Shown here in pieces: positions 1,985 through 23,325 of a DNA stretch of 23,325 nt. Each line of letters starts with the position of its first letter. The first letter of the stretch is position 1. The position numbers and the translations under genes are program-made. This DNA is from a virus (taxonomy: Duplodnaviria; Heunggongvirae; Uroviricota; Caudoviricetes): IMG/VR virus record IMGVR_UViG_2585427734_000005. One strand, given 5' to 3'. The notes beneath the pieces were generated by a model. It worked only from the letters and a program-made list of their open reading frames with translations. It had not been told where the DNA came from and did not search any database.

Positions 1985-2794
1985 TTATTCCTCTGAATTA
2001 TCGATTACACTGTATTCCCCGGTTAATACAGAGGAATCTGCAGGATCGATTGTCAGTGGTTCCTTTTCATCCATTGATACTGCACGCTGGATCTCAATTG
2101 ATACGGGCAAATATTTGAACAGGCGACGAATAGCCGTTTTCTTTGCCATTTCTTCCCAGTGAGTTACCCACGGCCCGTTATTACCAGCTTTACTCAGGCT
2201 GCGCACCAGCTCAATCTGTTTGCGCGTCATAACTTCAAACTGAGTACCTCCGTCTTTCAGTCTTGCGACAGCATAGACGTGGGTAACCGGGGCATCTTCG
2301 TTTTCTCCCGGGCGGTGTATTAACTTTTCATCAAGGCCAAATTCGAAGCTAAACTCGTCACCTTCACGGACAACACGGGCTGACAGGCTGGCGATTTGAC
2401 CAGAACGGCGAGCCAGATCAATCATGCCGCGATAGCCAATGATTAGCTGAACGTTCTTTTTACCGCTCTTTTCGTTTTTATTACCAAAAGGCAGTAAATA
2501 TGCATGACCGAGGGCGCTACCTGGCTCAAGTCCGAGCTGTGAACACTGTACGATCGCACTGACAAAACTCATAGTGTCACAGTTTCCTAACGCCGGAACT
2601 TTACGAATTTCTGTGGTGGCGATACGGATCATACGTTCAGCCGTCATATGGCGTGGAAGAGCTGCTGCCAGTTGCTCTTTCATTGATGGCTGGTTAATAA
2701 AACTAATCACGTCGCTATTTTTAACTGCTGCTGGTGCACGGTTTCCCTGAGTTTTTTGCAGATCGGCTTTTGCGATTGGTGGTTGCTTAGTCAT
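1985..2794 (-). CDS. recT: Recombinase RecT (single-strand annealing protein), 269 aa
   Basis: Translation from the ATG at 2792-2794 (AAGGAA SD upstream) gives [55 protein letters not shown]..., matching RecT. It overlaps the recE stop by 8 nt, as in the known recET operon. Confidence 0.95.
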
Positions 2795-4172
2795 TTGCAT
2801 ATTCCTTAGCCCAGCGGGGCAGTGATAATGTCTTAATAGCTGGCCATTCATCGGTATTCAGGCAGTCAGACAGGGTTCGCAGATTGCGGTGATATTCCTG
2901 TTGACCTGCCAGTTTTGCTTCTTCGCCCATCATGAAAATTTCAACCGGATAACGTCCGCATTCAATAGTTGTGCTGGCAACCAGAAAAACGAAAGTTGGC
3001 TGCACTCCAAACTGTGCTTCATAACCGTCACTGTAGAATGCATCCTGAACGTGATAGCGGTAGTCGTAATAAGCGGTTTTGAATCGTTGAATATCCGCCG
3101 TAGTTTTCACGTCCATGATCCAGTGAAATTCAGGGATAATTTTGTCCGGACGGCACCGACACAAAATTCCTGTTTCAGGATCTTCCCAGTAAATTGATGA
3201 TTCAGCGTGTCCGGCGCTTTCAACAAGCCATTGCCCCAGCGGCAAAGCCATAACGCTTTGATACATGAGTTCAATTTTCCGGCCTTCTTCCGCAGTGATA
3301 ACCGTTTTTCCTGTGCTTGCGCATTCCATCAGAAACGCTTTCTCTTCTTCTTTTCCGGCGTTTGTACGGCGGTTAAATTCAGGTGCTACGATAAAGCGGT
3401 TACTGAATTCTTCCGGTTCAAGTACCCGGCAGTGGAAAGCAGTTCCTAAATCGAGCGTTTTTGTCTTTGTGGTGTCCACGGGGGCATTTTTACGCCACAA
3501 ATATAGTGCCGGAGTATCAGCAATGTCATCGAGCTGAGACTTACTGATACCGGGACCCGCGTGGTAATTCTCATTCGAAATTCCGTAATAAATACCTGGC
3601 TCTATGTCTTCTACGATTACGGGATCTGCGACTTCGCCAGTTTCATCACTGCAATCGCGATGCGGATCGCTGCCAGCATTCTCATTGTGCGGATGTTCAG
3701 CGCCTTCCATTTCCTCCGGATCATTTTCCTTAGCTTCAACCTGACTCTCTTCATCGAATGTTTCCTGGTATGTTGCGTCGCCCATCACCGCACCACAGTC
3801 AGGGCAGTTATCCCCGCCAGTCTGGCCGCAGGCATTGCAGGCTATTTCCGGTTCCTGTTGCACTACTGGCTCAGGTTGATTCATATCCGGGCTGGTTTTT
3901 TCCGTTTCTGGCTGGTTCTGGTACACACAATCGCGAGTCTGGATCCCCTTTACCCATTTCGGATCGTTCGGGTCGCTAATTCCGTCAACAAATTCATCAC
4001 GTGATGCAGCAAGCAATTTATCGGCATCGACAGGATTTTTTGATGGAATGTTTTTCCGGGCTTTATGGAGTTCTGCCCGCAGTTCCTGATATTTCGCATC
4101 AACAGAATTTACCTGTGACTGAGCATCCAGCGGCTGCGTGTCCTGATGATGTTCAGTTGCGTCCGGTTCCAT
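2787..4172 (-). CDS. recE: recE 3' portion: ORF for the C-terminal 461 aa of exonuclease VIII (contains the nuclease domain)
   Basis: Minus-strand ORF starting at ATG 4170-4172, preceded by GGGAGAGG at an 8-nt spacing. The protein ([15 protein letters not shown]...[10 protein letters not shown]) matches the RecE C-terminal region. The frame upstream of the ATG reads ...[23 protein letters not shown], which is also RecE-like. Confidence 0.7.
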
Positions 4173-4984
4173 TGTTTCAGCCTCTCCCTGTTCAACTGCC
4201 GTTGTTCCAGATGGTTGCGGTTTTTCTTCATCATCCTGTTTCCGCCGCCAGCATTAGCACCGGAAGCCGTGCGAGTGATGTGTGAAACACGATTACCCTT
4301 CATCCACTCTTTTGTCAGCAGTCCTCGATCGGTGTAGTCAGCGTTCAGGTATGCTTCGAAAAAAGCAGTTATCAGTCCCAGGTTTGAATTACCAGGATTA
4401 GGGAAAACTTTGTCAGTGTCACGAACCAGTTTGTGGAGTTCGCGAATTTCCAGCGGGTCGAGCAGGCTGGTTTTGTGGGAAACAGCCAGGGCAGTAACAG
4501 CCGGTAGTTCTTCAGCCCGAGCAATGTGTAATGCCTGGAGTCCGTCGCGTGAAACGTGCGTTACCGGTTTTTCGCTGCCGTGTTGAGCAAGCCAACGAAT
4601 GGGCAGTTCCTGGCCAGAAATTGGGAGTAGCATATTCTCCTCAATCTCAGTCATGTCTTCGCCGTTGACGTTGGTATTGCCTTGATAGTGAGCGTTGTCT
4701 GGTGCTGCTCCCGGTTTTAGTTCCCATGTCATGGAGTCTTTGCTGAGTTGATAGCGTTCACTCCAGGTAAAATCGATCTCACCTTCAGCGGGCAGGTCAT
4801 TAACGACAGGAAAATTCGTGGCAACAGCTTTAAAATAGCTGCTCAGTTTTTTACCTGACTTAACGATCAGGTAGTCCAGAGTGGCACAGGTCGATTCAAA
4901 ATCGTTGCTTGCCCACAGGACGACGTCAGGTTCACCGGATGATTTTTTCGCTTTCCGTAACAGGAAGAGTGGTTTTGTGCTCAT
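4109..4984 (-). pseudogene. recE: recE 5' fragment: RecE N-terminal ~249 aa, then a frameshifted 42-codon tail
   Basis: ORF from ATG 4982-4984 gives [30 protein letters not shown]...[10 protein letters not shown] (RecE N-terminus), then runs out of frame relative to the downstream RecE ORF. The whole recE span (2787-4984) is 2198 nt against 2601 nt for the 866-codon K-12 gene. Confidence 0.7.
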
Positions 4985-5085
4985 TGTTTTTTAACCTCAA
5001 CTCAGATTAAAATTCGTTTTGTTCAGTGAATGATCTTGCCGGATACACACTGTTCATAGCCTGCGCCATACGCAGGCTATTTCTT

Positions 5086-5361
5086 TCAGATTTCACCTTT
5101 TAATTTCATTGCAATTAGAGTTGCCAGAAATTCGGCTTTTTTTTCTGCGGGCAGATTCTTTCCGATATGCACCAGGCACATTTTTTTGACACCTTCATCA
5201 AGTGTTTTTACGTTGCCTGATGGACCATCGATATCAACCACAGTGAATGGGGCTTCTTTATTTTCTGTTTTAATTACGTAGCCAATGCGCTTTCCTTCCA
5301 GATTCACCTCGTGAACAATGTCATCGGTAGTTACAACAGTGGCTTCATAATTGGTAATCAT
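5086..5361 (-). CDS. racC: RacC-like protein, 91 aa
   Basis: ATG at 5359-5361 with AAGGAG at a 6-nt spacing. Product MITNYEATVVTTDDIVHEVNLEGKRIGYVIKTENKEAPF... matches RacC from memory. Confidence 0.85.
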   Translation of the reverse strand: MITNYEATVVTTDDIVHEVNLEGKRIGYVIKTENKEAPFTVVDIDGPSGNVKTLDEGVKKMCLVHIGKNLPAEKKAEFLATLIAMKLKGEI

Positions 5362-5435
5362 GTTTTTCTCCTTAATTAAGGTTGAGCGAATACCTGCCAT
5401 TTCTGGCATAAATTCAGTTTCGAATAGTCAATTAA

Positions 5436-5606
5436 TTAAAGTTCATGTGCCATCTGGTCTTTTTCGGCACAAGCTTCACTGCAATATTTTCTCGGTTCGT
5501 CTTTTGATAAAATCCCGTGCATGAAGTGAAGCATTCTTTCAATAGCTTTGCTTTCTTCAACGTCTTTTTTGCAAAGGTGGTAAGCACATTTTATTTTCTT
5601 AGTCAT
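5436..5606 (-). CDS. ydaE: Small Cys-rich protein YdaE-like, 56 aa
   Basis: Translated by hand as [56 protein letters not shown]. Its ATG (5604-5606) overlaps the kilR stop by one base (TGATG), suggesting translational coupling. Not in the supplied ORF track (under 60 aa). Confidence 0.65.
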   Translation of the reverse strand: MTKKIKCAYHLCKKDVEESKAIERMLHFMHGILSKDEPRKYCSEACAEKDQMAHEL

Positions 5607-5827
5607 CACCATGACTCCGCCTTTACAGGTAAACCATCACGACCGAGGAAGACTTTAATCATGCGGTCAGTAATGCATGTTTTTGTGGTCAGGTTACGAA
5701 TATATAGTTTTCGCTTTTTAATATTGTTTGCCGAGGCAATATATGTCCGGCCTTCATGAAGAACATAATCGCCAGGAGTCACACACTGACGTGGTATTTC
5801 ATCAGTTCCGAAGTGATGTGCAATCAT
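5606..5827 (-). CDS. kilR: Killing protein KilR (cell-division inhibitor), 73 aa
   Basis: ATG at 5825-5827 preceded by GGAGA at a 6-nt spacing. Product [73 protein letters not shown] matches KilR from memory. Confidence 0.85.
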
Positions 5828-6268
5828 AATTATCTCCATTTTTACAAATGAACTTTGTTGATGCGGTGCCTGGTGCCTCCAGGTGACTGCAACCAGTTAA
5901 CAATTACAGTCGGCTTTCCCACCCAAACCAATAAGGACTAACATGACTTTTAACTGTGCCACGTGCGCTTAGCCGCATTCACCGCATCACAAAATTCACT
6001 TTAAAAAGGGCGGACATCAGCCGAACTTCAAGAAAAAAACTGATGCCGCCAGGACTACACACAGCAATGTCGTTATTTACAACCGGAGGCGCACTCCCAC
6101 CATTTAAATTTAACAGACAAGACCGACTCTTTATGGATATCGGAAATGCGCCTTCGTGTTGTGCCCGGTTTTATTTCACCACCTCCGGGCTTCGGTGGTC
6201 TCGGCTATACCCCTACAGCGAGAGCTTGTGTTAACATTTCAATACCCTTACAGTTGAGAGTTATTGAT

Positions 6269-7308: not shown

Positions 7309-7728
7309 CTATGATGCGTTTTGTGCTTTCTTTTTACGGATTTCTTCGTAGATCATATTGTAATACTGTTTTTTCTCTTCAAGAGTTTTTAATAAGTTAT
7401 CCGCTTCACTTTCTGGCAGTTCGTCTAAGAGATCTAAAAAAATACGTTGTCGTGGCGTTAGAACCCTTGTTTCATAACTGGAGGCTGTGTTCGTTGATGA
7501 TGAAACGATACCATCCATCCATCCCCGGGGTAACCCAAAGGACTCTTCGATAATCTCCACCATATCATCAGCGATCCGTTTTTTTCCCTTTTTCCCCTCT
7601 GGGTACAACATTCTTGATACATAAGAAGGCTCGCGCCCGATCTTTCTGGCCACGTTAACCGCTTTACCATCGCATTTCTCATCACGAATTTTGATGAGTT
7701 GCTGTCGTCTAAATTCATATTTGTCCAT
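7309..7728 (-). CDS. Prophage repressor (RacR-like), 139 aa
   Basis: Minus-strand ORF divergent from the Cro-like gene. Position and orientation match racR in Rac, and the N-terminal segment (AVNVARKIGREPSYVSRM) looks like a helix-turn-helix. The ATG at 7726-7728 has no SD and sits about 7 nt after a TATTAT -10, suggesting a leaderless mRNA. Confidence 0.6.
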   Translation of the reverse strand: MDKYEFRRQQLIKIRDEKCDGKAVNVARKIGREPSYVSRMLYPEGKKGKKRIADDMVEIIEESFGLPRGWMDGIVSSSTNTASSYETRVLTPRQRIFLDLLDELPESEADNLLKTLEEKKQYYNMIYEEIRKKKAQNAS

Positions 7729-7828: not shown

Positions 7829-8110
7829 ATGGAAGAATTAAGAATATTTCTCAATTCTCTTTCGTCAGATGAACAGCGTATGTTTGCATGCGAGTGTGGT
7901 ACCAGCATCGGTTATCTAAGAAAGGCATTGAGTAAAGGTCAAGTGTTAGGGGCATCGTTATGTGTCCTTATTGAGGGAGCCAGTAATGGTGAAGTTACAC
8001 GTCAGCAACTAAGGCCTTTTGATTGGATGAATATTTGGCCCGAGCTGGAAGATACCAAAATGTTAACACAACCACTTTCTAGGAGCTTGATTCATGAAAA
8101 TCAAGCATGA
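7829..8110 (+). CDS. Cro/YdaS-like small DNA-binding regulator, 93 aa
   Basis: ATG with AAGGAG SD, divergent from the repressor. The motif ...FACECGTSIGYLRKALSKG...RQQLRPFDW... resembles the YdaS/Cro-like family. Its 3' end overlaps the next gene. Confidence 0.6.
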   Translation: MEELRIFLNSLSSDEQRMFACECGTSIGYLRKALSKGQVLGASLCVLIEGASNGEVTRQQLRPFDWMNIWPELEDTKMLTQPLSRSLIHENQA

Positions 8111-8519
8111 ACACATCCGCATGGCGATGAATGCCTGGGCGCATCCGGACGGTGAAAAAGTTCCGGCAGCTGAAATAACCAGGGCTTATTTTGAACTGGG
8201 TATGACGTTCCCAGAACTGTATGACGACAGCCATCCGGAAGCCCTGGCTCGCAATACCCAGAAAATTTTCCGCTGGGTAGAGAAAGACACCCCTGATGCA
8301 GTTGAAAAAATTCAGGCGTTGTTACCAGCTATCGAAAAAGCAATGCCACCTCTGCTGGTGGCCCGAATGCGCAGCCATAGCTCAGCCTATTTTCGGGAAC
8401 TAGTGGAGACGCGGGAACGACTGGTGAGAGACGCTGATGATTTTGTCGCAGTGGCGATCGCTGGTTTCAACCAGATGAATCGTGGTGGCCCTGCAGGAAA
8501 TATTGTGGCTGTGCATTGA
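8094..8519 (+). CDS. YdaT-like protein (CII-like regulator or toxin domain family), 141 aa
   Basis: Starts MKIKHEHI..., as I recall for Rac YdaT, and has a similar length. The ATG at 8094 overlaps the upstream gene (AGGAGC SD at a 7-nt spacing). Confidence 0.6.
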   Translation: MKIKHEHIRMAMNAWAHPDGEKVPAAEITRAYFELGMTFPELYDDSHPEALARNTQKIFRWVEKDTPDAVEKIQALLPAIEKAMPPLLVARMRSHSSAYFRELVETRERLVRDADDFVAVAIAGFNQMNRGGPAGNIVAVH

Positions 8520-10458: not shown

Positions 10459-12462
10459 ATGATTATGAGTGAAAATGATACAACCCCAAAGAAGTCTACA
10501 AGCCAGATTAACAAAGCGGTATTCTTTACATCTGCTTTGCTAATTTTCCTTCTTGTCGCCTTTGCCGCCGTATTCCCGGATGTCGCCGACAAAAATTTTA
10601 AACTACTTCAGCAACAAATCTTCACGAATGCCAGCTGGTTCTACATACTTGCTGTGGCCCTGATTTTACTGAGCGTCACGTTCCTTGGACTCTCACGTTA
10701 CGGTGATATAAAGCTGGGCCCAGACCATGCGCAGCCTGATTTCAGCTACCACTCCTGGTTCGCGATGCTTTTTTCGGCAGGGATGGGGATCGGCCTGATG
10801 TTCTTTGGCGTTGCCGAACCTGTGATGCATTATCTTTCGCCACCTGTCGGCACTCCAGAGACCGTTGCGGCAGCGAAGGAAGCCATGCGCCTGACGTTCT
10901 TCCACTGGGGTCTGCACGCATGGGCAATTTATGCCATCGTGGCGCTGATTCTGGCCTTTTTCAGTTACCGTCACGGTCTGCCTTTAACGCTGCGTTCTGC
11001 GCTCTATCCCATTATCGGCGATCGCATTTACGGGCCTATAGGCCACGCGGTTGATATCTTCGCCGTGATAGGCACTGTCTTTGGCGTTGCAACATCGCTG
11101 GGTTACGGTGTATTGCAGGTGAATGCCGGTTTGAACCATCTTTTCGGCGTGCCCATCAATGAAACGGTACAGGTCATTTTGATCGTGGTCATCACGGGGT
11201 TAGCGACGATTTCGGTGGTGTCCGGCCTGGACAAGGGAATACGCATCCTGTCTGAGCTTAATCTGGGCCTGGCGGTGTTGCTCCTGGCGCTGGTCTTGTG
11301 CCTGGGTCCCACTGTGCTTCTGCTGAAGTCATTTGTGGAAAATACGGGTGGTTATTTGTCGGAACTGGTGAGTAAAACGTTCAACCTTTACGCGTATGAA
11401 CCCAAGTCGAGCAACTGGCTGGGGGGCTGGACATTATTATACTGGGGATGGTGGCTTTCATGGTCGCCGTTTGTAGGTATGTTCATTGCACGCGTTTCCC
11501 GCGGCAGGACAATTCGTGAGTTCGTGACTGGCGTGTTGTTTGTTCCCGCCGGCTTTACGCTCATGTGGATGACGGTGTTTGGAAACAGCGCCATCTATCT
11601 CATCATGAACCAGGGCGCCACTGACCTCGCCAATACCGTTCAGCAGGATGTTGCGCTTGCCCTGTTTAATTTCCTGGAGCATTTCCCGTTCTCTTCCGTG
11701 CTGTCATTCATTGCAATGGCGATGGTCATCGTCTTCTTTGTAACGTCTGCTGATTCGGGGGCAATGGTTGTGGATACTCTGGCATCAGGTGGGGTGGCAA
11801 ACACGCCCGTCTGGCAGCGAATTTTCTGGGCATCGCTCATGGGCGTTGTTGCTATTGCCCTGCTGATCGCAGGGGGGCTGAGTGCGTTGCAAACCGTAAC
11901 GATAGCGAGTGCATTGCCCTTCTCAGTTATCTTATTAATATCCATATACGGACTGTTAAAAGCCCTGCGTCGGGATTTGACCAAGCGTGAAAGCCTTAGC
12001 ATGGCGACTATTGCTCCTACGGCTGCACGTAACCCAATTCCCTGGCAGAGAAGGTTACGCAATATCGCGTATTTGCCGAAGCGCTCTCTTGTGAAACGTT
12101 TTATGGACGACATTATCCACCCCGCCATGACGCTGGTTCAGGAGGAACTTAACAAGCAGGGAACGATAAGCCACATCAGTGACGCCGCCGAGGATCGTAT
12201 TCGCCTTGAAGTCGATTTGGGCAACGAGCTGAATTATATATATGAAGTGAGGCTTCGCGGGTATAACTCACCGACCTTCGCGCTCGCTGCGCTGGATAAT
12301 GATGAGCAGCAGAGTGAACAACATCGATATTATCGCGCTGAAGTCTATCTCAAAGAGGGCGGCCAAAATTATGATGTAATGGGCTGGAATCAGGAACAGC
12401 TGATTAATGACATACTGGACCAGTACGAAAAACACCTGCACTTCCTGCATCTGGTTCGTTAA
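10459..12462 (+). CDS. betU: BCCT-family osmolyte transporter (BetT/BetU-like), 667 aa
   Basis: Strong similarity throughout to E. coli BetT as recalled (for example WxxWWxxWSPFVGMFIARVSRGRTIREF, SADSG, ...DILDQYEKHLHFLHL). The 667-aa length and position in a Rac-like prophage suggest the BetU variant; the gene symbol is less certain than the family call. Confidence 0.85.
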   Translation: MIMSENDTTPKKSTSQINKAVFFTSALLIFLLVAFAAVFPDVADKNFKLLQQQIFTNASWFYILAVALILLSVTFLGLSRYGDIKLGPDHAQPDFSYHSWFAMLFSAGMGIGLMFFGVAEPVMHYLSPPVGTPETVAAAKEAMRLTFFHWGLHAWAIYAIVALILAFFSYRHGLPLTLRSALYPIIGDRIYGPIGHAVDIFAVIGTVFGVATSLGYGVLQVNAGLNHLFGVPINETVQVILIVVITGLATISVVSGLDKGIRILSELNLGLAVLLLALVLCLGPTVLLLKSFVENTGGYLSELVSKTFNLYAYEPKSSNWLGGWTLLYWGWWLSWSPFVGMFIARVSRGRTIREFVTGVLFVPAGFTLMWMTVFGNSAIYLIMNQGATDLANTVQQDVALALFNFLEHFPFSSVLSFIAMAMVIVFFVTSADSGAMVVDTLASGGVANTPVWQRIFWASLMGVVAIALLIAGGLSALQTVTIASALPFSVILLISIYGLLKALRRDLTKRESLSMATIAPTAARNPIPWQRRLRNIAYLPKRSLVKRFMDDIIHPAMTLVQEELNKQGTISHISDAAEDRIRLEVDLGNELNYIYEVRLRGYNSPTFALAALDNDEQQSEQHRYYRAEVYLKEGGQNYDVMGWNQEQLINDILDQYEKHLHFLHLVR

Positions 12463-12469
12463 CAGCAAC

Positions 12470-12498
12470 ATGCCGCCACAGAGGCGGCATTTATTTAT
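12470..12498 (+). terminator. Rho-independent terminator downstream of the BCCT transporter gene
   Basis: Perfect 8-bp stem ATGCCGCC/GGCGGCAT with loop ACAGA, followed by TTATTTAT, 8 nt after the stop codon. Confidence 0.6.
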
Positions 12499-12525
12499 CC
12501 CGGCTGCAATATGAGGGAATGCAGA

Positions 12526-13803
12526 ATGATTTCACGCTGGAAATGGATGCTGAAGCAGACATTTAAAAAACTATGGTTCAGGGCAACGTTATTCGCAATT
12601 GTCGCAATAATAACGGCCCTTTTATCAATTCTTTTTAAATCAATGATACCTGAGTCGGTTTCCGTGAAGGTTGGTGCGGAAGCAGTCGATAACATTCTGA
12701 ACATACTGGCATCGAGTATGCTGGCAGTGACCACATTTTCGCTGAGCATCATGGTCACAGCCTACGGTTCAGCCACTACTAATGTGACTCCCAGAGCTAC
12801 TCGTTTAGTTGTTGAAGACGTCACCACACAAAATGTACTGGCCACCTTCATCGGTTCTTTTCTCTTCAGTCTGGTAGGGATTATTGCTCTCAATATGGGA
12901 GCTTATGGAGAAAGGGGGAGAGTCATTTTATTCATTGTAACACTGGTTGTCATTGCCTTAATCCTCATCACATTGCTTCGCTGGATACAGCATTTGACCT
13001 CTCTGGGGAGGGTTGGTGAGACAACGGCAAAAGTAGAACAGGCGGCCATCGAAACATTTATTGCGAGAGCAAGAAATCCCTGTCTCGGCGGATATCCATG
13101 GCTTGAGAACAATGAACAGCCGAAAGGAACGGTTGCAGTTTATCCGAAAAAGATTGGCTATGTTGAATATGTTGATATGGTGAAACTCAGCAAGCTGCTG
13201 ACCAATGATCCCCGTCATGTATACCTCGTGGCGCAGCCGGGCAGTTTCATACATCCGTCCACGCCAGTTTTGTACCTGAGTCAGGGCCAGGAGTCATCAA
13301 TCAGCACCGATTTACTTGAGACGATTATTGTCTCGGATGTACGTTCATTTGCTCAGGACCCCCGATTTTGTCTTAGCGTCATGGCCGAAATAGCCTGCCG
13401 AGCCCTTTCCCCCGCAGTGAACGATCCTGGAACCGCCATTGATGTCATTGGCAGAGGTGTACGTATACTTTCCGCTTACGCGCAGAATAAATCTGATGAA
13501 ATAGAAGTGAAATATCCTTCTGTACATGTTGCACCACTTCAGAATAACGATCTACTTGAAGACTTTTTCTCACCTGTTGCGCGCGATGGTGCCAGTATGA
13601 GGGAAATTCAGATAAGGGTACTTAAAGGACTGTCGATGCTGAGTAAGGGTTGGCCTGGAATTTTTGCTGAAGCCGCACAAACCCTAGCATTTGAAACATT
13701 AGAGCATGCTACTCGTGCTGACCATATAGATTCTGACAGATATCTAATAAAATCAATTTATTATAATTTATTTAGTGGCGAAGATTCTAATAAAAAACCA
13801 TAG
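12526..13803 (+). CDS. Hypothetical membrane protein, 425 aa (N-terminal transmembrane segments plus large soluble domain; possibly DUF2254-like)
   Basis: ATG at 12526 preceded by GAGGGAA at a 6-nt spacing (an alternative ATG at 12511 has no SD). Hydrophobic N-terminal half and a long C-terminal domain. The family assignment is a tentative recollection. Confidence 0.6.
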   Translation: MISRWKWMLKQTFKKLWFRATLFAIVAIITALLSILFKSMIPESVSVKVGAEAVDNILNILASSMLAVTTFSLSIMVTAYGSATTNVTPRATRLVVEDVTTQNVLATFIGSFLFSLVGIIALNMGAYGERGRVILFIVTLVVIALILITLLRWIQHLTSLGRVGETTAKVEQAAIETFIARARNPCLGGYPWLENNEQPKGTVAVYPKKIGYVEYVDMVKLSKLLTNDPRHVYLVAQPGSFIHPSTPVLYLSQGQESSISTDLLETIIVSDVRSFAQDPRFCLSVMAEIACRALSPAVNDPGTAIDVIGRGVRILSAYAQNKSDEIEVKYPSVHVAPLQNNDLLEDFFSPVARDGASMREIQIRVLKGLSMLSKGWPGIFAEAAQTLAFETLEHATRADHIDSDRYLIKSIYYNLFSGEDSNKKP

Positions 13804-13863
13804 TTGCGGAGCAAGCGATACGGTTGTTGGCAAGTCAAGGGCAAAGCATTCGCGTGAGAGTGG

Positions 13864-13889
13864 GCGTCTGCTTTGTGCCAGAAGCGGAC
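13864..13889. repeat. Hairpin repeat copy B (GCGTCTGCT-N10-AGCGGAC)
   Basis: 7-bp stem with one G-U-compatible mismatch and loop TTGTGCCAGA (nearly identical to the copy A loop), between the convergent membrane-protein and LysR genes. Confidence 0.5.
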
Positions 13890-13933
13890 ATACGTAACTT
13901 ATGATACGCATCGCCAATCATCCGTTTCAAACA

Positions 13934-14815
13934 TCAACGCGGAAACGTTTTAAGAATGTAATCCCGAACATAGGCGGTTCGGCTGTTATTAGCCGTCCTT
14001 TTGTTCCAGACCAGATAAAGATGATTAGTCGGAGCGAGGTCTGCAGGTGTCACTGAAATCAGGCGACCACTTTTCAGGTCATTGTCACAGTGATAATCCG
14101 GCAGCACTGTCCACCCGTGGCCGTCACAGACCAAGTCGCGGATAATACGTAAATCCGGAATGGTGAATGTAGCCTGCATCTCAGGGGCTCTCTGAAACAT
14201 GGAGGCCCAGAGCGCTCTAATCAGTGGCAACTCTTCGTCATAAGCAATCAGCGGTAATGAGGCAAGCGTTTCAGCACCAGGTTCTGATCCGATGATCTCT
14301 GACATGGCGGGAGCATGAACAAGGAGCATGCGTTCAGTCAGTAGATGTGCATAGCCGTACAGACGGTCATCAGGCATAGATGTGGTAACAGCGAGATCGG
14401 CGCTCCCGTCATGCAAAAGGGAATAAATACGTTGCTTATTGCCGGTATGAAAGCGTAGGCGATACCCCTCCTTCATTAGTGGAGCCATTACTGTCCCAAG
14501 CCGGGAATGAATAAAATCTGGCGGTCCTGCCAGATTAATTGTTCCCCCGCGTACAGAGCCTGACCGGAAAGAGGACAGCTTTTCTTCCAGACCATCAATG
14601 AAGGGTGAAACTGAGCGGGCAAGCTCATCCGCAGCTTCGGTTGCCGTCACGCCTCTGGCCTGCCTGATAAACAGACGCTTACCAACCAGAGTCTCAAGAG
14701 ACTGGATATGCTGTGACGCCGCGGGCTGAGTGATGCCCAGTAGTTCTGCCGCCTTTGAAAAGGAGCCAGAGCGATAGGCCTCAAGAAACGTTCGCAGATG
14801 GCTCAGATGGCTCAT
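13934..14815 (-). CDS. LysR-family transcriptional regulator, 293 aa
   Basis: N-terminal HTH typical of LysR-type regulators (MSHLSHLRTFLEAYRSGSFSKAAELLGITQPAASQHIQSLE) with a C-terminal substrate-binding-like domain. The ATG overlaps the upstream gene's stop (ATGA). Confidence 0.9.
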   Translation of the reverse strand: MSHLSHLRTFLEAYRSGSFSKAAELLGITQPAASQHIQSLETLVGKRLFIRQARGVTATEAADELARSVSPFIDGLEEKLSSFRSGSVRGGTINLAGPPDFIHSRLGTVMAPLMKEGYRLRFHTGNKQRIYSLLHDGSADLAVTTSMPDDRLYGYAHLLTERMLLVHAPAMSEIIGSEPGAETLASLPLIAYDEELPLIRALWASMFQRAPEMQATFTIPDLRIIRDLVCDGHGWTVLPDYHCDNDLKSGRLISVTPADLAPTNHLYLVWNKRTANNSRTAYVRDYILKTFPR

Positions 14816-15504
14816 AGTGAAGCGCCTCGCTGATGAAGTTTATCGTTACAGGGAGCCTCATGCAGAGCAAGGGCCAGTTCACTCACGTAATCATCCCGTA
14901 TTCCCAACGCACCCAGAGTGGCCTGCAGTTTCCATACATAATCTGCATTCGTGCCAATGTCTCCACGGGCAGATGCGATGCTCAACGCTACGGTCGCTGT
15001 AAGATTGTCCTGTTCATAATGCGGATGCAGTCTGTCTGATACGAAAGCCAGCGCCTGAATTTCCTCACCGTTTCCTAGCGAAACGTCTGCCCAGACCGGA
15101 CGGTAAAGACCGGTTATCATCTCGCGCGTCCAGACAATTTCCAGCTCATTAATAAGAGTCGATTCCGGCAGTCTGAACGCAATACCTTCGGTAATTCCAC
15201 CTTCGTCGAGCGATAACATCCTGCCGGGGACATCAGGAGTCGCTCGTCCGGATATCAAACGAATGCAGAAACTGCGCTGCCATCCTTTCAGACGGGCCCG
15301 TTGCATTTCTTCAATCGCCAGCACGGGATTCCACATCAATGACCCGTAGGCAAATATCCAGACAGGAGCACCCGTCGGGCGCTCCTCCAGAGTAGAGTTC
15401 ATTGATGCGCGTATTTTTTCAGCGTCCCAGAGCATATTCGCCGGGAGCAGCGCTTCATGCACCCTGACAAATGTGCCATTAAGCATATTTTCACGGGTAA
15501 GCAT
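14812..15504 (-). CDS. ChaC-like gamma-glutamylcyclotransferase family protein, 230 aa
   Basis: Contains the ChaC/GGCT hallmark VWIFAYGSLMWNP and overall similarity to E. coli ChaC as recalled. GGGAGGT SD upstream of the ATG at 15502-15504. Confidence 0.85.
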   Translation of the reverse strand: MLTRENMLNGTFVRVHEALLPANMLWDAEKIRASMNSTLEERPTGAPVWIFAYGSLMWNPVLAIEEMQRARLKGWQRSFCIRLISGRATPDVPGRMLSLDEGGITEGIAFRLPESTLINELEIVWTREMITGLYRPVWADVSLGNGEEIQALAFVSDRLHPHYEQDNLTATVALSIASARGDIGTNADYVWKLQATLGALGIRDDYVSELALALHEAPCNDKLHQRGASL

Positions 15505-15515
15505 ATAACCTCCCT

Positions 15516-16716
15516 TTACTGGCCTACGATTTTAACCTGTTGAAATTTACGACTGTGGCTGCGACGGATTTGTGCAAGCAGCAACAGCAGGCCGAGCAGA
15601 GAAACAATCGCACCGCTGATACCGGTATACACGATACCGGCGTGGCTTATAGTAATGCTGCCCAGTACTGATCCCAGCGCTATACCTGAGTTGAAGCCCG
15701 CAATATTCAGGCCGGCAGCAACACCATGCGCATGAGGAGCATGTTGCTCAGCGACACCAATCAGACGGGCCTGCAGTGCCGGCACTGCGGCAAATGTCAC
15801 CATACCCAGCAGCGCAACCACAATGCCCATGCTCACCGGTGAGGATGACAGCAGCCACATACCAAGCACGACAACAACAATGCCGCTAATGATGAGTATA
15901 TTGGCACGATTAACCCCCATGCTGTCGGTAAGTTTCCCACCAAGAATATTACCTACCGCAGCTGTAATACCGTAAACCAGCATAAACAGACTCACCGTTG
16001 CTCCGGTAACCCCTGTCACCTGCGTCAGAATAGGTGCGATAAAGGTGTAAGCCGTAAACGAGCCTGCATACGCCAGCACCGTAACCAGCGCGCCGGCCAG
16101 CAACTTACGGTTAAACAGCATGCCGATATTCTGCATTGCTGAGTCACTATGTTCACCGGGCACGCTGCGTACGGGATCTTTCATACCGAACAACAGTCCA
16201 AGGAATCCGAACGCGCCAAAAGCGGCAATAGCGCCGAGAACTGGACGCCATGAGACCCCCCCCCCCCAACCATGTACTCAGCGGTACGCCGATTGCCATC
16301 GCCAGAGTAAAGCCACCAAATACCACAGCCACCGCTCTGCCTGCTTTACCCGGTCCAGCAAGACGAGCTGCGGTACTGGATGCCGCAGCCAGAAACAGGC
16401 CGTGTCCCAGACCAGCAATGAACCGCGCTAACAGGAGCTGAGGTAATGTGGCTGCAAACGCGGCCGCCAGACTACCGGCAGTAAACACAACGGCAGTTGT
16501 AAGCATTACATTTTTCCGGCTCCAGCTTGCTGTCAGCGCAGACAGTACGGGTGCCGCGAACGTTGCCCCCAGTGCATAGGTTGTAACCGCTGCCCCGGTC
16601 TGCTCCACACCCACACACAACCCCTGAGCCATAACGTCTGTCAGCCCAATGGGGACAAATTCCGCGAGTCCGAGCGCAAAGGCACTGATAGTAAACACAT
16701 AAATAACAAATGGCAT
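15516..16716 (-). pseudogene. MFS transporter (DHA1/YdhP-AraJ-like), split into two ORFs by a frameshift at a C12/G12 homopolymer
   Basis: N-terminal ORF 16153-16716 (AGGAG SD, 12 nt after a TM-rich start MPFVIYVFTISAFALGLAEF...) and C-terminal ORF 15516-16193 are both MFS-like with multiple TM helices. The frames switch at the 12-C run at 16256-16267. Confidence 0.8.
16256..16267. repeat. Homopolymeric tract C12 (G12 on the coding strand) at the MFS frameshift site
   Basis: Twelve consecutive C residues counted directly in the sequence. Confidence 0.9.
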
Positions 16717-22927: not shown

Positions 22928-23037
22928 AATCTTAACTACAATATGATTCATTTTGATGATTGTTTCATAAGGAACAGTGAAGTAAGATCTAAGAGGAGTT
23001 AAATTTTATACAGTATAATCATAATATTGCAGCAAGT

Positions 23038-23325
23038 AGACTGGCCCCATGAATCTCCAGACAACCAATATCACTTAAATAAGTGATAGTCTTAATACTA
23101 GTTTTTAGACTAGTCATTGGAGAGCAGATGATTGATGTCTTAGGACCGGAGAAACGCAGACGGCGTACTACACAGGAAAAGATCGCTATTGTTCAGCAGA
23201 GTTTTGAACCGGGAATGACGGTCTCCCTTGTTGCCCGGCAACACGGTGTGGCAGCCAGCCAGTTATTTCTCTGGCGCAAGCAATACCAGGAGGGAAGTCT
23301 TACTGCTGTGGCCGCAGGAGAGCAG
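23038..23325 (+). mobile_element. IS2 insertion sequence, left end (continues beyond the window)
   Basis: Sequence from TAGACTGGCCCC... matches the IS2 left terminal inverted repeat as recalled, followed about 90 bp later by the insC start. Confidence 0.85.
23128..23325 (+). CDS. insC: IS2 transposase OrfA (InsC), N-terminal 66 codons (partial at window edge)
   Basis: [66 protein letters not shown] matches IS2 InsC. GGAGAGC SD upstream. Truncated by the window end. Confidence 0.9.

Follow-up and report, generated by a model that had tools for sequence, protein, structure and literature searches.

A 403-nt out-of-frame deletion in recE of a Rac-type prophage that spares the nuclease domain and recT

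The recE gene lying next to recT in a Rac-type prophage (IMG/VR record IMGVR_UViG_2585427734_000005; the whole stretch of 23,325 nt that was analysed is hereafter called the window) is shorter than its known counterparts, and the question that it raises is whether this allele is simply a decayed gene or still encodes a truncated exonuclease VIII able to work with RecT. That the C-terminal domain of RecE is sufficient is textbook knowledge in recombineering; the original prediction for this locus proposed an internal out-of-frame deletion of about 0.4 kb in recE and, as its possible outcome, a functional truncated RecE/RecT pair. On the evidence collected here, the allele is probably a pseudogene in a Rac-type cryptic prophage, and the nuclease capacity that it retains is most likely latent and not expressed.

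The left arm of the prophage, which is integrated beside ttcA, lies at the start of the window; on the minus strand the genes follow one another in the order intR, xisR, rcbA, ralR, recT, recE, racC, ydaE, and kilR, and sieB comes next on the plus strand, an arrangement matching the annotation beside ttcA in E. coli ET881, SW071610, and SE11. The first 10,984 bases of the window are 100% identical to contig JOSQ01000092.1 of the E. coli draft isolate 8-415-05_S1 (GCA_000713775.1). The same prophage shows other signs of decay: an MFS transporter gene is split, and an IS2-like end lies at 23037. The features discussed below are collected in Table 1.

Table 1: Features of the recT-recE region, with positions in the window.
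Feature	Position	Strand	Remarks
intR	1-1236	minus	
recT	1985-2794	minus	269 aa, intact; product identical to that of SE11 and ET881 (WP_000166319.1)
recE (exodeoxyribonuclease VIII) remnant	2787-4984	minus	2198 nt instead of 2601 nt; frameshifted pseudogene
ORF2	2787-4172	minus	461 aa = RecE 406-866, native frame to native stop; ATG 4170-4172
PD-(D/E)XK exonuclease domain (RecE 605-866)	2790-3575	minus	phmmer match to PDB 3h4r_A, E = 4e-181
ORF1	4109-4984	minus	291 aa = RecE 1-249 plus 42 out-of-frame residues ending ...SHR, stop
Shine-Dalgarno-like (SD-like) element GGGAGAGG	4181-4188	minus	8 nt upstream of ATG 4172-4170
Deletion junction	4238-4241	minus	AAAC microhomology (4 nt) at both ends of the missing 403 nt

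The deletion and its carriers

In both SE11 and K-12 strains, intact recE measures 2601 nt, so that the shortening proposed originally against the K-12 gene holds for both. Aligned base by base, SE11 recE and the remnant share their first 747 nt and their last 1455 nt without a mismatch, which add up to 2202 nt, that is, the 2198 nt of the remnant plus 4; what had been put at about 0.4 kb measures precisely 403 nt (gene nt 744-1146 or 748-1150, codons ~249-383), and this gap is the sole difference within the gene, the rest of which is 100% identical to SE11. Since 403 = 3 x 134 + 1 is no multiple of 3, the reading frame shifts. The alignment thus consists of one clean gap with a broken frame, and displays neither a single intact frame nor a sequencing indel.

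When the recE span was compared by megablast with 5426 complete E. coli genomes, most close relatives aligned as two pieces spanning 2601 nt, and ET881 and SW071610 aligned as a single piece of 2198 nt. The same two genomes (2 of 5426) were matched by a 48-nt probe centred on the junction, which intact alleles cannot match through the 28-nt seed; ET881 comes from frog faeces in China and SW071610 from wastewater in the Galapagos, and in both the corresponding span carries the PGAP/RefSeq label "exodeoxyribonuclease VIII, frameshifted". The exact 291-residue product of ORF1, with its unique frameshift tail, occurs on 78 contigs (NCBI, JGI, ENA, and Logan), and the index of public assemblies contains it in 95 blocks, drawn from isolates and gut metagenomes, including a metagenome of the human gut. 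That the real gene is intact and the gap an artefact of assembly or sequencing has a negligible probability: nothing speaks for it beyond the general possibility raised with the original prediction, the two independent complete genomes, two draft isolates, and numerous Logan and ENA assemblies all show the identical junction, and a gap of 403 nt is unlike a homopolymer-type error. The deletion is therefore real, and independent assemblies agree that the frame is disrupted where orthologues at this locus are intact, as is expected of a pseudogene.

Over alignments of 2-12 kb, every retrieved carrier showed 99.93-100% identity to the window, the number of SNPs being 0-6 across as much as 12 kb; this near-identity points most probably to one deletion event in one lineage. 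As to how it arose, we infer that a single event of illegitimate recombination or replication slippage between the two AAAC tetranucleotides removed 403 bp of a gene that was silent; the event would have happened once, and the allele, fixed by drift or by hitch-hiking, would now belong to a single E. coli lineage that has been sampled widely. It may be asked whether the loss was instead selected, the deletion being favoured by the removal of a function of the N-terminal and middle module of RecE (a role in linear-linear recombination, or a toxic activity) with recT spared. The allele is found in many samples from several continents, and the deleted segment lies in a part of the protein which is 84-94% conserved among mosaic relatives, which implies that this segment has a separate function; the spread, however, is just as well explained by hitch-hiking in a successful clone, only the two complete genomes mentioned above carry the allele, and a silent recE offers no phenotype to select, so that selection of this kind seems very improbable.

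Coding capacity on the two sides of the junction

Translation from the native recE start would end after 291 residues as a consequence of the frame shift: the N-terminal frame follows RecE up to residue 249, about where the original prediction placed the break, and then runs through the 42 out-of-frame residues to a stop codon at 4109-4111. The N-terminal Exonuc_VIII domain (PF06630) is complete in ORF1 (residues 2-178, window 4451-4981, E = 5e-99), with the consequence that it now resides on a polypeptide separate from the nuclease. On the other side, the frame opened by the internal ATG continues to the native C-terminus, again as predicted, and the 1.4 kb at the 3' end of the gene that were spared by the deletion encode an acidic linker, a Cys4 motif, and a complete nuclease domain. 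Indeed, residues 200-461 of ORF2 align with residues 4-265 of chain 3h4r_A (262 residues), differing at the first aligned residue and at one Pro/Leu position; Pfam PF12684 (PDDEXK-like) is recognized at residues 210-445 (E = 1e-28), and the nuclease motif positions D748 and D759-x-K761 are present, within RPD at 746-748 and MDVK at 758-761. Because the sequence of ORF2 matches a solved structure (3H4R), the completeness of the PD-(D/E)XK domain, catalytic motif included, is settled, and the stand-alone 3' ORF does hold the whole exonuclease domain. Neither ORF amounts to a full-length RecE read in a single frame from end to end: against the NCBIfam equivalog NF007259, whose full-length cut-off is 1269 bits and to which SE11 RecE scores 1827 bits, ORF2 reaches 1046 bits (model positions 417-877) and ORF1 441 bits (model positions 1-277), both below the cut-off.

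The functional autonomy of the C-terminal part of RecE has been documented in different experimental settings. The nuclease domain 564-866 substitutes genetically for full-length RecE (PMC11611040), E588, consisting of the C-terminal 279 residues of RecE, retains exonuclease activity (PMC11257833), and RecE from residue 588 together with RecT, once put in lambda, equalled Red in phage crosses (PMC3945230); enhanced linear-linear recombination is a property of full-length RecE (PMC11611040, citing Fu et al. 2012), which the product of ORF2, even when made, would not have. The premise of the original prediction, that is, the sufficiency of the C-terminal part for activity with RecT, is thus sound. 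The active fragments published so far (564-866, 588-866, and the crystallised domain) all fall within ORF2, whose product, if produced, would very probably be an active exonuclease. A tblastn search retrieved homologues in 780 phage records, almost all of which match only residues ~190-460 of ORF2; this restriction indicates that the nuclease domain is an autonomous and widely conserved unit.

Immediately downstream of the recE remnant lies an intact annealase gene of the RecT family (Pfam PF03837, E = 1e-55), the integrity of recT having been correctly foreseen; its ATG and the end of recE overlap by 8 nt (ATGACTAA). The 3' part of recE and recT being untouched, the locus would keep a latent capacity to encode an active truncated exonuclease VIII plus RecT.

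Initiation at Met406 and expression of the operon

Whether this capacity is ever used depends, in the first place, on initiation within recE. We consider it unlikely that, upon transcription of the early-left operon (by prophage derepression or an sbcA-like event), ribosomes start at Met406 by means of GGGAGAGG, or at a later in-frame Met, and so make RecE 406-866, a 5'-3' exonuclease that cooperates with RecT in linear-plus-circular recombination. Somewhat less likely still is a natural split RecE, in which the truncated exonuclease starting at Met406 and the 291-residue N-terminal fragment are both made. In favour of these possibilities are the inclusion of all published active fragments in ORF2, the autonomy in nature of the domain shared with the phage homologues, and the properties of the start site itself: the SD-like element is found where it had been reported, 8 nt before the internal ATG, its pairing with the 3' end of the 16S rRNA is predicted at -8.2 kcal/mol, as compared to -6.7 kcal/mol at the native recE start and -6.0 kcal/mol at recT, and the intact recT gene has an SD of its own.

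Other properties of the same site argue in the opposite direction. Values of -7 kcal/mol or better are found at 3 of the 42 ATGs in recE, and the match of GGGAGAGG is therefore within chance expectation. The intact allele already contains the element. Four diverged RecE-family alleles have ATG or GTG at the aligned codon, but upstream of it they read GGCAACGG, GGCAACGA, GGCAACAA, and GGCAGCGC; because these four do not keep the SD-like bases, the idea of a natural internal start conserved at Met406 was discarded. As for accessibility, the predicted mean unpaired probability of the ribosome-binding region is 0.41 at the internal site, lower than that of the native recE start (0.62) and of the recT start (0.52), and the idea that the deletion opened the internal site was likewise rejected, the intact context giving 0.45, a slightly higher value. 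Moreover, ORF1 and ORF2 overlap by 64 nt, which implies that a ribosome translating ORF1 would pass over the internal start and terminate 64 nt past it. Taken from the sequence, the internal start at Met406 appears most likely to be fortuitous.

Transcription was considered along similar lines. In a crude consensus scan of the minus strand, no sigma-70-like hexamer pair turned up near 4172-4300, the counts of promoter-like sites being below the shuffle mean; a promoter created by the junction was on this basis dismissed. No clear rut-like tract, C-rich and G-poor, follows the premature stop in 100-nt windows. From 4242 to 5954 the window does not differ by a single base from SE11, whose recE is intact; this region runs from the 5' end of recE through the spacer between racC and recE, racC, ydaE, and kilR to 130 nt past kilR. 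No sbcA-like activating change thus accompanies the deletion, and an upstream change of that type was excluded up to position 5954. The deletion being out of frame, no gene fusion is made either; the hallmarks of an sbcA-type activated recET that were looked for, namely, an altered sequence within 4242-5954, a fusion, and, in the crude scan, a promoter-like pair at the junction, are all lacking. All of this weighs against a split gene in use. In MG1655, recET is reported to be completely repressed, even on lambda infection, unless rare sbcA mutations occur or the genes are incorporated into lambda (PMC3945230), an observation to be read as one on K-12, whose immunity region differs from that of this prophage.

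ORF2 is intact and identical in all four carriers checked (4/4), as a functional gene would be; the carriers are too alike (0-6 SNPs over up to 12 kb), however, for this intactness to carry information on selection.

Of the functional RecE/RecT pair envisaged originally, the coding part has stood, with a complete nuclease domain, an intact recT, and published fragments that are active; the part concerning expression has not, given the unconserved SD-like element, the lack of a promoter-like site near the junction, the SE11-identical upstream sequence, and the reported silence of recET in K-12 in the absence of sbcA mutations.

Meaning of the allele and comparison with known systems

Counting against a plain pseudogene are the intact 3' ORF, an internal ATG with a better anti-SD match, the SD of recT, and the activity of shorter fragments with RecT, in view of which an active nuclease may be made at a low level or on induction. 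The reading of the allele as a pseudogene is nonetheless the one preferred here, and in it the latent capacity most likely goes unused: the operon would be transcriptionally silent, like that of other Rac prophages, the internal start would be fortuitous, and ribosomes in the first frame would cross it.

The lesion is an ordinary frameshifting deletion in a well-known Rac gene, already annotated in RefSeq, and does not represent a new kind of feature; the RefSeq call of a "frameshifted" pseudogene is correct and requires no change, and a literature search found no paper describing this particular recE allele. The finding is of little importance overall and matters mainly as an example of decay in a cryptic prophage, which happened to spare the module used in recombineering. 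Were ORF2 expressed, its carriers would own a natural RecE(406-866)/RecT pair, the counterpart of the engineered truncated-RecE/RecT combinations; with a split RecE the lineage would keep RecT-dependent linear-plus-circular recombination and lose the linear-linear activity of the full-length protein. Such an expressed allele would also be a natural test of what the N-terminal two-thirds of RecE contribute, a question that engineered truncations already address.

The closest known system is the Rac recE of K-12 and SE11 (UniProt P15032), with which the present allele shares the locus (ttcA-intR-xisR-rcbA-ralR-recT-recE-racC-ydaE-kilR-sieB), 100% nucleotide identity to SE11 recE outside the gap, and an identical RecT; it differs in the 403 missing nucleotides, in the broken frame, and in that neither ORF attains the NCBIfam full-length cut-off. 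The engineered fragments RecE588 and RecE564 (564-866) and the 3H4R fragment are all contained within ORF2 with the same sequence, whereas ORF2 itself starts at residue 406, carries ~180-200 extra linker residues, and is devoid of an engineered promoter or ribosome-binding site.

Classical frameshift and fusion alleles of K-12 recE offer a further term of comparison. According to Chu, Templin and Clark in 1989, a large N-terminal part of RecE is reportedly dispensable for exonuclease VIII provided that the C-terminal part is expressed, and activity is said to have required in-frame fusion to an expressed upstream gene together with sbcA-type activation; in the present allele, by contrast, there is no fusion and no activating change.

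Two other strains resemble the window in having lost the 5' or middle part of recE while keeping recT and the nuclease part at the 3' end. Strain 2017-01-4CC has an IS1A element abutting recE nt 1123; in INSC1002, possibly a laboratory construct, only 276 nt and 831 nt of the gene are retained. PGAP marks the nuclease remnants of both as partial pseudogenes, and their breakpoints and mechanisms (IS1-associated in the former) differ from those described here, so that they represent independent events.

Finally, short stand-alone exonucleases of the RecE-like PD-(D/E)XK type, encoded by Mycobacterium, Gordonia, Vibrio, and other phages, are homologous to ORF2 over residues ~190-460 only; these are 27-50% identical to it and, unlike the present remnant, are intact genes with starts of their own and not the remains of a longer gene.

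Candidate internal start and further truncations of recE

Downstream of the start of the 461-aa ORF that encodes the C-terminal part of RecE, a second in-frame ATG, corresponding to Met560 of the intact 866-aa protein, is preceded by a GGAGG element (see the table); the spacing between this element and the start codon is probably too short. The product begun at Met560, if made, would be nearly identical to the published nuclease fragment comprising residues 564-866. The nuclease part of recE is retained, together with recT, also in two further truncations of the gene, found in strains 2017-01-4CC (L018) and INSC1002 (L019).

Features of the window and of the comparison loci
Feature	Sequence	Coordinates	Strand	Remarks
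In-frame ATG, RecE Met560	window	3710-3727	minus	GGAGG 2 nt upstream; duplex -9.5 kcal/mol
C-x2-C-x8-C-x2-C motif	window	3795-3839	minus	RecE residues 517-531, within the acidic linker
Palindrome ATAGCCTGCG...CGCAGGCTAT	window	5056-5080		racC-recE spacer; 10-bp stem
Non-phage cargo block	window	10459-16716		inside the prophage, between replication-region genes and hokD
MFS transporter gene	window	15516-16716	minus	broken into ORFs 15516-16193 and 16153-16716, which overlap
RecE-family gene	L014	1318-3762		RecE N-terminal/middle module and Rv2179c-like 3'-5' exoribonuclease domain (PF16473)
RecE-family gene	L015	1247-3295		RecE N-terminal/middle module without any nuclease domain; adjoins gam-bet-exo
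RecE-family gene	L016	1310-3751		protein as long as that of L014; annotated as 'exonuclease'
Truncated recE	L018	2249-4479		bounded by IS1A at recE nt 1123
Truncated recE	L019	3001-4100		reduced to 276 nt + 831 nt

Immunity region, cargo and decay of the prophage

The immunity region (window 7309-7728, on the minus strand, and 7829-8519) is unlike that of both SE11, the reference strain with an intact recE, and the Rac prophage of K-12; the place taken in SE11 by other helix-turn-helix proteins is occupied by the 139-aa protein WP_000362155.1 and by a YdaS/YdaT pair. Given this difference from K-12 Rac, the control of the early-left operon, which holds recE and recT, may be different from that in K-12. 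The palindrome lying between racC and recE scores as terminator-like on the plus strand only.

The non-phage cargo of the prophage comprises a BCCT transporter, a DUF2254 protein, a LysR regulator, a gamma-glutamylcyclotransferase and an MFS transporter; since the gene of the latter is split, and is annotated as 'frameshifted' in the complete genome of SW071610, it is a second pseudogene of the same region. In SW071610 and ET881, the nearest relatives, the match to the window ends at position 23036 and the sequence goes on to trkG; by eye, we take the remaining segment (23037-23325) for part of an IS2-like element of the IS3 family, namely its left end and its first ORF.

Contig ends, the Cys4 motif and mosaic RecE-family genes

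Many short contigs carrying the deletion allele (L008-L013, from metagenome and Logan assemblies) break off within recE at almost one position (window about 3750-3851), probably because the assembly graph collapses at this point on RecE-family paralogues present in those genomes. The four-cysteine motif of the RecE linker is kept across five mosaic RecE-family proteins that are otherwise divergent at both ends, and it resembles a zinc-ribbon or zinc-knuckle. In other prophages (L014, L015 and L016) the N-terminal and middle module of RecE is fused to different C-termini; both DnaQ-like nucleases and nuclease-less 'RecE-2' proteins have already been mentioned for lambdoid Rec modules in a 2025 paper (PMC12315714).
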